Virus record (IMG/VR): IMGVR_UViG_3300031697_000053
Strand: one strand, 5' to 3'
Origin: a virus
DNA: 12,245 nucleotides
The translations under genes were made by a program, and so were the position numbers. Position 1 is the stretch's first letter. Each line of letters opens with the position of its first letter. Below the pieces are notes generated by a model. The model was not told the origin of the DNA. It did no database searches and saw only the letters and a program-made list of their open reading frames with translations. Below are positions 12,000 to 12,086 of the stretch, one piece after another.

Positions 12000-12086
12000 C
12001 TCTCGAGGTAGGATTCGAACCTACGATGGAGTATTAACTCACCAGGTTAACAGCCTGGACCAGTCGACCGCTATGGCAACTCGAGA
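12000..12086 (-). tRNA. Type II (long variable arm) tRNA with GTT anticodon: Ser/Tyr-like body, G73 discriminator, Asn-codon anticodon
   Basis: Minus strand: TCTCGAG-TT-G-CCA-TAGCGGTCGAC-TGG-T-CCAGG-CTGTTAA-CCTGG-[TGAGT TAAT ACTCC ATC]-GTAGG-TTCGAAT-CCTAC-CTCGAGA-G. The acceptor, anticodon and T stems are perfect. The 17-nt variable arm forms a GAGT/ACTC hairpin. The loop CTGTTAA differs from the bacterial tRNA-Tyr loop CTGTAAA only at position 36. Confidence 0.65.

Follow-up and report, generated by a model that had tools for sequence, protein, structure and literature searches.

A class II tRNA gene with the asparagine anticodon GUU in a phage-like tRNA array, a likely asparagine isoacceptor on a long-armed scaffold

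The class II GUU gene and its fold

The window analysed here, the whole stretch of 12,245 nucleotides (nt) of the virus record IMGVR_UViG_3300031697_000053, is phage-like and has a GC content of 32.7%. Towards its right end lies a transfer RNA (tRNA) gene that combines the long variable arm of class II tRNAs with the anticodon GUU of asparagine. ARAGORN called it as a tRNA-Asn(gtt) at 11999-12086 on the minus strand, and the 87-nt RNA from U1 to G73 occupies 12000-12086, which is exactly the extent that an earlier sequence-only reading had proposed and to which the minus strand is now added. That reading had described a class II tRNA with GUU as its anticodon, a hairpinned arm of 17 nt, G73 and perfect acceptor, anticodon and T stems, and had suggested ARAGORN as a check. 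The call, together with a structural parse that was anchored on the ARAGORN anticodon position and on the T arm (7/7, 5/5 and 5/5 pairs in the three stems), bore the description out. Rfam family RF00005 matched the gene with 40.3 bits (gathering threshold 29; E = 9e-6 for the window), which was the lowest score among the 14 tRNA genes of the array and the sole family match in a local search. The minus-strand RNA reads UCUCGAG UU GCCAUAGCGGUCGACUGGU CCAGG CUGUUAA CCUGG UGAGUUAAUACUCCAUC GUAGG UUCGAAU CCUAC CUCGAGA G, and its parts are as follows.

12000-12086, minus strand: class II (long variable arm) tRNA with anticodon GUU, from ARAGORN, Rfam, the structural parse and covariation; U1 is position 12086 and G73 is position 12000
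12080-12086, minus strand: 5' strand of the acceptor stem, UCUCGAG, paired with CUCGAGA at 12001-12007 (7/7 Watson-Crick)
12059-12077, minus strand: D-arm GCCA-UAGCGGUCGAC-UGGU, with A14, G18 and G19 in the loop, from the sequence and the parse
12042-12058, minus strand: anticodon arm CCAGG-CUGUUAA-CCUGG (5/5 Watson-Crick; ARAGORN anticodon at position 36), with the anticodon GUU at 12049-12051
12025-12041, minus strand: variable arm UGAGUUAAUACUCCAUC of 17 nt, parsed as U, a GAGU/ACUC stem of 4 base pairs (bp), a UAAU loop and a CAUC tail
12008-12024, minus strand: T arm GUAGG-UUCGAAU-CCUAC (5/5 Watson-Crick, with covariation)
11999, minus strand: C right behind the discriminator, so that C74 is encoded and C75 and A76 are not

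The acceptor end was parsed as U1-A72, C2-G71 and U3-A70. The D-arm is atypical, with a G.U-closed stem of 4-5 bp and without nucleotide 26, which can equivalently be described as a 3-nt connector behind the acceptor stem. Because of this unusual D-arm, the generic model of Infernal slid the acceptor by one base and took an A as the discriminator. This register was rejected, since the pair 1-72 covaries in relatives; it was always paired in 12 of them (GC in nine and UA in three), and therefore the ARAGORN register and G73 are right. A single-sequence minimum-free-energy fold, in which the D and anticodon regions paired with each other in a non-cloverleaf form, was likewise rejected, because the covariation backs the cloverleaf. 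All described cellular tRNA-Asn have the class I architecture with a variable region of 4-5 nt, whereas the arm here is 17 nt long and hairpinned; no refold yielded a variable region of 4-5 nt, an outcome that the sequence-only reading had wished to see checked. The acceptor/T helix is 7/5, and not 8/4, 9/3, 8/5 or 9/4 as in allo-tRNAs or tRNA-Sec-like (selenocysteine) molecules.

Selection on this fold was assessed in an alignment of 12 relatives that share the exact architecture of the window tRNA. A MAFFT alignment of 20 diverse members was not used, since a one-base difference in the D-arm had mis-registered the acceptor 5' strand. On the specified cloverleaf, 97% of the cells of the 12-member alignment were paired and both sides had changed in 19 of the 25 pairs. 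The covariation score was 0.72, compared to 0.22 for shuffles (0/500 reached it) and 0.09-0.16 for slid partners. Covariation was found in six of the seven acceptor pairs, including 1-72, in four of the five pairs of the anticodon stem, in all four pairs of the variable stem and in two D-stem pairs; the G10.U pair of the D stem was invariant (12/12). RNAalifold, working from the alignment alone, gave the same class II cloverleaf with the D stem lengthened to 5 bp. The anticodon loop, the T loop, G18 and G19 did not vary, and the compensatory changes, U33, G18-G19, the T loop and the 7/5 stack expected of a tRNA were all present. Relative to the copy in Cellulophaga phage phi4:1, the window tRNA differed by three compensatory changes, C-G to U-A in the acceptor stem, G-C to A-U in the anticodon stem and U-A to A-U in the variable stem. 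With covariation in all five helices and with invariant loops, the pseudogene reading is excluded, and the class II GUU tRNA is a selected structured RNA.

Near-identical strains were recovered by exact-protein look-ups in JGI, ENA and Logan assemblies, and their contigs break near the array; these look-ups returned near-identical strains only and no divergent relatives. One strain variant (contig L007) carried a compensatory A-U to G-C change in the D stem of the class II GUU gene. The possibility of a sequencing error at position 36, which the sequence-only reading had named as a weak point, was rejected, because the same GTT was present in the independent assemblies L003, L004 and L005, in the variant L007 and in about 100 homologues.

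Relatives, identity marks and the shared scaffold

A sensitive blastn search against cultured phages found the phi4:1 copy, with 85.6% identity over all 88 nt, annotated in GenBank as "tRNA-OTHER / tRNA-Pseudo". Partial matches across the variable arm fell on genes of cultured phages that are labelled plain "tRNA-Asn".

Xanthomonas jumbo phage XacN1: class II "tRNA-Asn" of 89 nt
Cronobacter phage GAP31: class II "tRNA-Asn" of 89 nt
Salmonella phage 7t3: class II "tRNA-Asn" of 89 nt
Pseudomonas phage UAVern: class II "tRNA-Asn" of 88 nt

The GAP31 gene recurs in the E. coli K-12 phage 4MG (89 nt), E. coli phage LNA4, Klebsiella VIK251 and Enterobacter EC152. The arm of the XacN1 tRNA-Asn is identical to the window arm at 16 of 17 positions, though the stems differ. 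Viral and cellular contigs (one genome per species for the latter) were then scanned for CTGTTAA followed 17-30 nt on by GGTTCRANTCC, a spacing that is impossible for a class I tRNA, and a family gene was defined as a GUU tRNA called by ARAGORN whose variable region is 10 nt or longer. Each scan gave at least 120 matching loci. Among the viral matches listed, 93 of 120 loci held a long-armed GUU tRNA, amounting to at least 96 genes and at least 93 unique sequences, compared to 14 of 120 among the cellular matches listed. Eleven of the listed cellular genes were at least 82 nt long; seven of them stood in dense arrays (10-36 tRNAs within 8 kb) and two were apparently intron-containing tRNAs. 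The other cellular matches listed were chance ones outside tRNAs. From these counts, the class II GUU family is large and strongly virus-associated, and it is diverse. An exact-pattern search of IMG/VR with the anticodon arm and the start of the variable arm, the anticodon being left free, met with one locus, a chance match opposite a tRNA-Met, and was set aside.

For the comparison of amino-acid identity, about 1,300 well-formed unique tRNAs were parsed from the fetched loci. The class II GUU tRNAs (n = 94) had U1-A72 in 69% and G1-C72 in the rest, G73 in 94%, and C-G (41) or G-C (39) as the 2-71 pair; the type I tRNA-Asn of the same loci (n = 32) agreed with this signature, having U1-A72 in 50% and G73 in 81%. 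After filtering to 89 unique class II GUU genes, U1-A72 occurred together with G73 in 60 and G1-C72 with G73 in 23, and the serine acceptor triple G1-C72/G2-C71/A3-U70 was found in 3/89. Phage tRNA-Tyr (n = 39) carried G1-C72 in 35/39 and A73 in 38/39, and phage tRNA-Ser (n = 52) carried G1-C72 and G73 in 46/52 each, G2-C71 in 52/52 and A3-U70 in 48/52. The leucine genes sampled had A73 in 65/65 and U48 in 48/48.

In E. coli, asparagine identity consists of the GUU anticodon and G73, a set that can be transplanted into tRNA-Lys (Giege and Eriani 2023, PMC9976931), and U1-A72 is a determinant for amidation by GatCAB (PMC9976931). Tyrosylation relies critically on A73 and U35 and, in Bacteria, on G1-C72. 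G73 acts as an antideterminant for the tyrosyl- and leucyl-tRNA synthetases (TyrRS and LeuRS). C2-G71 is listed as an antideterminant for seryl-tRNA synthetase (SerRS), and in bacterial tRNA-Ser the conservation of G1-C72 and G2-C71 is given as absolute (all PMC9976931). Judged by the E. coli rules, the window tRNA has G34-U35-U36 and G73, as well as the U1-A72 of the indirect, GatCAB-dependent pathway. G1-C72, G2-C71 and A3-U70 of serine are absent from it, G73 being a feature that serine has in common with asparagine, and its arm, with a 4-bp stem and a 4-nt 3' tail, is not of the serine type (4-8 bp and 0-2 nt). The tyrosine marks A73 and G1-C72 are replaced by G73 and U1-A72; G34, U35 and the arm geometry agree with tRNA-Tyr(GUA), and position 36 is U. 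The leucine features (A73, U48 and no 5' spacer) are replaced by G73, C48 and a 1-nt 5' spacer. On sequence grounds, the window tRNA thus has every asparagine mark of these rules, and it fails the serine and tyrosine tests at the acceptor end. The sequence-only reading had given the SerRS identity set as G73 plus a long arm. Both are genuine determinants, but the set is an incomplete account of serine identity, and the window tRNA is without G1-C72 and G2-C71.

The place of the gene in phage tRNA sets was examined next to these marks. The complete phi4:1 genome (145,865 bp) contained no other GUU tRNA beside the class II copy. Eighteen other amino acids were served there by one tRNA gene each, Tyr(GUA) and Ser(GCU) among them as genes of their own, and a tRNA nucleotidyltransferase was also encoded. 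A type I tRNA-Asn was absent in 76/96 of the viral loci listed with a class II GUU tRNA, and in 24/38 of those arrays with at least 15 tRNAs. Many such arrays were non-redundant (34 tRNAs with 33 anticodons, 32 with 32, 27 with 27 and 25 with 25), usually with a separate tRNA-Tyr. The class II GUU tRNA fills the asparagine slot in these otherwise non-redundant phage sets. In the open reading frames (ORFs) of the window, asparagine makes up 6.7% of the codons (AAU 4.3%, AAC 2.4%), and the array duplicates tRNAs of the Lys, Glu, Phe, Ile and Asn types, as an AT-rich genome needs. The window also encodes a metallophosphoesterase (2968-3579), the invariant asparagine of whose GNHD motif is encoded by AAC; AAY must therefore mean asparagine in this phage.

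A type I tRNA-Asn of canonical length was found, the sequence-only reading having advised a look for a canonical one elsewhere in the genome. On contigs L003 and L007 of the near-identical strains, the class II gene is preceded upstream by a type I tRNA-Asn(GUU) and then by Asp and Trp tRNAs; the type I gene is 75 nt long and lies 264 nt upstream, outside the window (L003:156-230 / L007:758-832). G1-C72 and U73 mark the type I tRNA, and U1-A72 and G73 the class II copy, so that of the two GUU tRNAs of this phage it is the long-armed one on which the better asparagine identity set sits.

The sequence-only reading had assigned the gene a Tyr- or Ser-like body. In the class II GUU family, the variable arm has a 5' spacer of 1 nt, a stem of 3-4 bp, a loop of about 4 nt and a tail of 3-4 nt (often CAUC, CACC or CGCC). 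The corresponding figures are a 1-nt 5' spacer, a stem of 3-4 bp and a 3' tail of about 3 nt for tRNA-Tyr, a stem of 4-8 bp and a 3' tail of 0-2 nt for tRNA-Ser, and no 5' spacer with a single U48 as the 3' tail for tRNA-Leu. The arm plan is that of tRNA-Tyr, not of Ser or Leu. Home-made isotype hidden Markov models (HMMs), trained on about 1,200 phage and cellular tRNAs, were applied without the variable arm and with a masked anticodon; their cross-validation accuracy was 70% overall and 49% for Asn, which makes them weak evidence, and of a class II-like body only. They gave the window tRNA 35.4 bits for Tyr, 32.8 for Ser, 30.6 for Gln and 28.1 for Asn, and spread the class II GUU family over Gln, Tyr, Cys, Ser and Asn. 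Identity is not settled by the likeness of the whole body, and the core is class II and Tyr-like, in line with the Tyr part of the earlier assignment.

When an HMM of the subgroup was searched with the anticodon masked, the same scaffold was found with other anticodons. The top non-Asn match was a class II tRNA-Lys(UUU) with A73 in the uncultured 636-kb phage LR756504 (L135:2983-3071), whose D-arm UCCGUAGUUGGUCGAACGGU and variable arm UGAGAGAAAUCUCCAAC are nearly identical to those of the GUU scaffold. The discriminators of class II and class I tRNAs were then compared by anticodon.

Asn, discriminator G: class II 104/110, class I 33/39
Lys, discriminator A: class II 8/9, class I 91/94
Cys, discriminator U: class II 7/7, class I 39/39
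His, discriminator C: class II 4/4, class I 35/40
Trp, discriminator G: class II 4/4, class I 35/35
Thr, discriminator U: class II 9/14, class I 53/71

On the shared scaffold the discriminator tracks the anticodon, as it does in class I tRNAs, and hence the scaffold is not aimed at SerRS, TyrRS or LeuRS. Most of the odd class II anticodons are one substitution away from those of natural class II tRNAs (GUA or GCU to GUU, UGA to UGU, UAA to UAU, CAA to CAU, and GUA to GUG or GCA). These one-substitution anticodons and the Tyr-like geometry suggest that class II genes, most like tRNA-Tyr, were duplicated and remoulded within phage arrays. A descent of the window gene from a class II tRNA, plausibly from tRNA-Tyr by the change A36U that the sequence-only reading had pointed out, would be reasonable in view of the arm geometry and the body HMM.

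In the sampled loci, the share of class II genes was 12/24 for Ile-UAU, 14/85 for Thr, 7/46 for Cys, 10/80 for CAU, 9/103 for Lys, 4/44 for His and 4/39 for Trp. It was 0/52 for Ala and 0/86 for Gly, long arms were rare among Val, Asp and Glu, and tRNAs for GNN codons were almost never long-armed. In XacN1, a class II tRNA-Cys(GCA) with U73 (L134:2214-2302) has an arm that ends in the same CAUC tail.

The tRNA array and neighbouring genes

Beyond the class II GUU gene, the following features belong to the array.

8990-12086, minus strand: array of 14 tRNA genes (ARAGORN; all 14 matched by Rfam), continuing past the window end
9538-10263, plus strand: LysM endolysin gene interrupting the array (PHROGs, Pfam)
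10916-11003, minus strand: second class II tRNA with a class I anticodon, CAU, with a 20-nt variable arm, a U1xC72 mismatch and U73 (ARAGORN, Rfam, parse)

The second mismatch between body class and anticodon that the sequence-only reading had reported is thus present, and a third lies outside the window in the same phage. This is an odd class II Thr(UGU) tRNA of 84 nt with G1-C72, C2-G71 and U73 (L009:16389-16472, also L010:16080-16163); it adjoins Ala and Pro tRNAs about 12 kb past the far end of the array and is similar to the GUU scaffold in its D-arm and in the tail of its variable arm. Class II CAU tRNAs in other viral loci had the initiator signature C1xA72 with A73 in 4/10. A separate initiator-like CAU tRNA stands at 8990-9063; it has a U1xU72 mismatch, and its anticodon stem contains three G-C pairs. 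The single array holds three GAA and four CAU genes, and the members at 11855-11926 and 11777-11849 (both minus strand) look degenerate or atypical. The "Phe" gene at 11855 has the anticodon loop CGGAAAG without U33 and is gapped there by Rfam; one "Glu" gene of the array has the loop UUUUCGA and imperfect stems.

The nucleotide after the discriminator was C in 14/14 of the window tRNA genes (followed by A in ten, by T in three and by G in one), and CCA was found in none. Fourteen of 14 in sequence of 33% GC is not chance, and C74 seems to be encoded, so that C75 and A76 must be added.

Besides the metallophosphoesterase, the window encodes a nucleoside deoxyribosyltransferase-like protein. 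An ORF of 804 amino acids at 487-2901 (minus strand) has Major Vault Protein shoulder, vault repeat and SPFH/Band 7 domains; in Cellulophaga phage phi4:1, an SPFH protein is annotated as a virion component. About 2 kb from the metallophosphoesterase, a small ORF at 5256-5753 (minus strand) contains the H-V-T-L motif twice (GEHVTLVFG and IPHVTLAFD) and weakly matches the tRNA-ligase CPD domain of Pfam. It encodes a 2H phosphoesterase, possibly one for RNA repair or cyclic-nucleotide hydrolysis. A megablast of the array against cultured phages gave nothing close and only short matches to tRNA-Met genes, and a protein search of IMG/VR with a 365-amino-acid ORF found no relatives.

Interpretation, alternatives and meaning

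The observations made on the genes themselves are the conserved and covarying fold, the identity nucleotides and the pattern in which the asparagine slot is filled. As we read them, the gene probably encodes a functional phage tRNA that reads AAC and AAU as asparagine, namely an asparagine isoacceptor on a class II scaffold. From the same observations we infer how such a tRNA would be expressed, processed and charged with asparagine, and what selective value, if any, its arm may have. It would be transcribed with the array from the minus strand and trimmed at both ends, and C75 and A76 would then be added enzymatically, an addition that is needed because the array genes encode C74 only and never CCA. 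Charging with asparagine would be carried out by the asparaginyl-tRNA synthetase (AsnRS) of the host, or by a non-discriminating aspartyl-tRNA synthetase together with GatCAB, with recognition through G34-U35-U36, G73 and U1-A72. The charged molecule would be used on the ribosome like any tRNA-Asn in this 33%-GC phage. The scaffold would be a class II tRNA, most like tRNA-Tyr, of which the anticodon, the first pair and the discriminator were remoulded to asparagine. The long arm would not be the amino-acid identity element. Phages use this scaffold also for Lys, Thr, Cys, His, Trp and CAU tRNAs.

Several points weigh against this reading. AsnRS is a class IIb enzyme, and class II synthetases face the variable-region side of the tRNA; the long arm might therefore hinder it. 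The D-arm is unusual and lacks nucleotide 26, and the body HMMs, with their low accuracy, rank Asn below Tyr, Ser and Gln. With the type I GUU tRNA only 264 nt upstream, decoding does not strictly depend on the class II copy. G73 and the long arm are two genuine SerRS determinants, and some serylation is possible. Furthermore, the identity rules were worked out in E. coli and a small number of other species, and the host here is probably a member of Bacteroidota.

In function, the closest analogue is the ordinary tRNA-Asn; in structure, it is the bacterial tRNA-Tyr. The canonical class I tRNA-Asn(GUU) shares with the window tRNA the CUGUUAA loop, G73, U1-A72, the 7/5 helix, the UUCGAAU T loop and the codons read, but has a variable region of 4-6 nt where the window tRNA has the 17-nt arm, a class II-like D-arm and a body score for Asn of only 28 bits. 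With the class II tRNA-Tyr(GUA) it shares the arm geometry, U8-U9, the D-loop AGYGG...CGA, an anticodon loop one base off and the top body HMM, and it differs in G73 for A73, U1-A72 for G1-C72 and U36 for A36, besides coexisting with a genuine tRNA-Tyr in most arrays. [quoted passage not shown]

The deliberate mistranslation that the sequence-only reading had considered could take two forms. A tRNA charged by SerRS through G73 and the 17-nt hairpinned arm would cause AAC and AAU to be read partly as serine. SerRS ignores the anticodon (PMC9976931, PMC7609411), Ser is the second-best body HMM, and there are natural precedents. The nematode nev-tRNAs combine a class II body with a Gly or Ile anticodon and are charged with leucine (PMC3333845, PMC4033280); the allo-tRNAs or selC*-type tRNAs (PMC5389517) have a long arm and non-Ser anticodons, and some occur in phages and irregular tRNA polycistrons. 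In the nev-tRNAs, however, identity follows the body and misdecoding results, whereas in the phage family, which is much more widespread among viruses, the discriminator and the first pair follow the anticodon; the acceptor end of the body is not retained whatever the anticodon. The allo-tRNAs have 8/4 or 9/3 helices, Sec-like D-arms and a predicted Ser or Ala identity, unlike the 7/5 helix and asparagine marks found here. Moreover, the window tRNA has U1-A72, C2-G71 and U3-A70, of which C2-G71 is the SerRS antideterminant in place of the G2-C71 of all 52 phage tRNA-Ser; the arm stem and tail are not of the Ser type, the serine acceptor triple is confined to 3/89 of the family, and scaffold-mates with other anticodons carry the non-G discriminators of their own amino acids. 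In phi4:1 such a tRNA would be the sole phage decoder of Asn codons, and the catalytic asparagine of the phosphoesterase is written AAC. We consider serine acceptance improbable. Charging by TyrRS, which would recognise the arm, G34 and U35 of a tRNA-Tyr altered by A36U and so bring tyrosine to Asn codons, appears highly improbable. The loop CUGUUAA is one base from CUGUAAA, the arm geometry and U8-U9 are Tyr-like and Tyr is the best body HMM; nevertheless, G73 and U1-A72 stand where phage tRNA-Tyr has A73 (38/39) and G1-C72 (35/39), A73 is critical for tyrosylation while G73 repels TyrRS (PMC9976931), and a normal tRNA-Tyr(GUA) is also present in most arrays with a class II GUU tRNA. The asparagine marks, the tracking of the anticodon by the discriminator and the filled asparagine slot speak against recoding in either form. 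A non-decoding molecule, also suggested by the sequence-only reading, might be a tRNA-shaped RNA or decaying pseudogene, acting as a decoy for a tRNA-binding enzyme or nuclease or as a processing spacer of the array. The "pseudo" label of the phi4:1 copy, the lowest Rfam score of the array, the odd D-arm and the second GUU tRNA nearby would fit this; the covariation in five helices with the invariant anticodon loop, T loop, G18 and G19 does not fit a pseudogene. A pure decoy would need neither a conserved CUGUUAA, though the scan pattern itself demanded CTGTTAA, nor acceptor marks that track the anticodon, and sets that are otherwise complete would not have it as their only Asn tRNA. Taking the conserved identity marks and the slot filling into account as well, we regard a non-decoding role as quite improbable.

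An asparagine isoacceptor could in addition owe its arm to adaptation, and we mention this as a rather speculative idea. A shape unlike that of the class I tRNAs of the host might be spared by a host defence tRNase or by a phage nuclease that destroys host tRNAs. The arm helix is kept by compensatory change, many unrelated phages use this scaffold for at least seven amino acids, and the 2H phosphoesterase of the window is a possible RNA-repair gene. That Tyr, His, Asn and Asp tRNAs are attacked by nucleases of the colicin E5 type also counts for an adaptive arm. Colicin E5 has been named as a tRNA-depleting enzyme, and phage tRNAs have been proposed to evade anticodon nucleases (PMC10264068). 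The tRNA-Tyr of phage T5 has a distinctive variable loop that makes it resistant to retron-Eco7; in the tRNA-Tyr of E. coli, this loop is cut by Septu (PMC13096335). This escape from retron-Eco7 and Septu PtuAB (PMC11555353, PMC13096335) resembles the present case in that the variable region of the phage tRNA differs from that of the host, and is a precedent for nuclease sensitivity being decided by the arm; on the other hand, the T5 tRNA belongs to a normal class II isotype and is altered in its arm sequence, and nothing ties the window tRNA-Asn to any nuclease. Known evasion works by sequence changes inside a loop or arm and not by gain of an arm, and the arm could be a neutral relic of descent from a class II tRNA, kept since its loss would break the co-adapted D-arm and core. 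A check of the PARIS preprint for effects on tRNA-Asn or of variable arms found none. In its widest form, and just as tentatively, phages may possess a portable class II chassis (a Tyr-like short hairpin, a 3-4-nt tail and a class II D-arm) that is retargeted through the anticodon, the discriminator and the first pair to at least seven amino acids. These would be Asn, Lys, Thr, Cys, His, Trp and Met/Ile-type CAU and UAU tRNAs, which are class I only in cells, and the arm would be kept to mark phage tRNAs against those of the host, so that they escape defence tRNases or a phage-directed purge of host tRNAs.

According to textbooks and to reviews (PMC4033280, PMC7609411, PMC9976931), long variable arms occur only in Leu, Ser, Sec and bacterial Tyr tRNAs, with missense or suppressor oddities as the exceptions. 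The full-text literature searched, whose coverage was incomplete so that a prior description is possible, contained no description of a class II tRNA-Asn or of a wider class II scaffold in phages. Single genes were already known from GenBank under the labels "tRNA-Asn" or "pseudo"; what may be new is the recognition of the family as a long-armed variant of tRNA-Asn. The annotation of genes that are now labelled plain "tRNA-Asn" or "pseudo" is affected. If the cognate identity is kept, the division into class I and class II would not be fixed for each amino acid, and the question arises how AsnRS, and LysRS, ThrRS and CysRS for the scaffold-mates, tolerate the extra arm. The E. coli K-12 phage 4MG and Cellulophaga phage phi4:1 are tractable systems in which it may be asked whether the shape of a tRNA is part of the arms race between phages and hosts over tRNAs.

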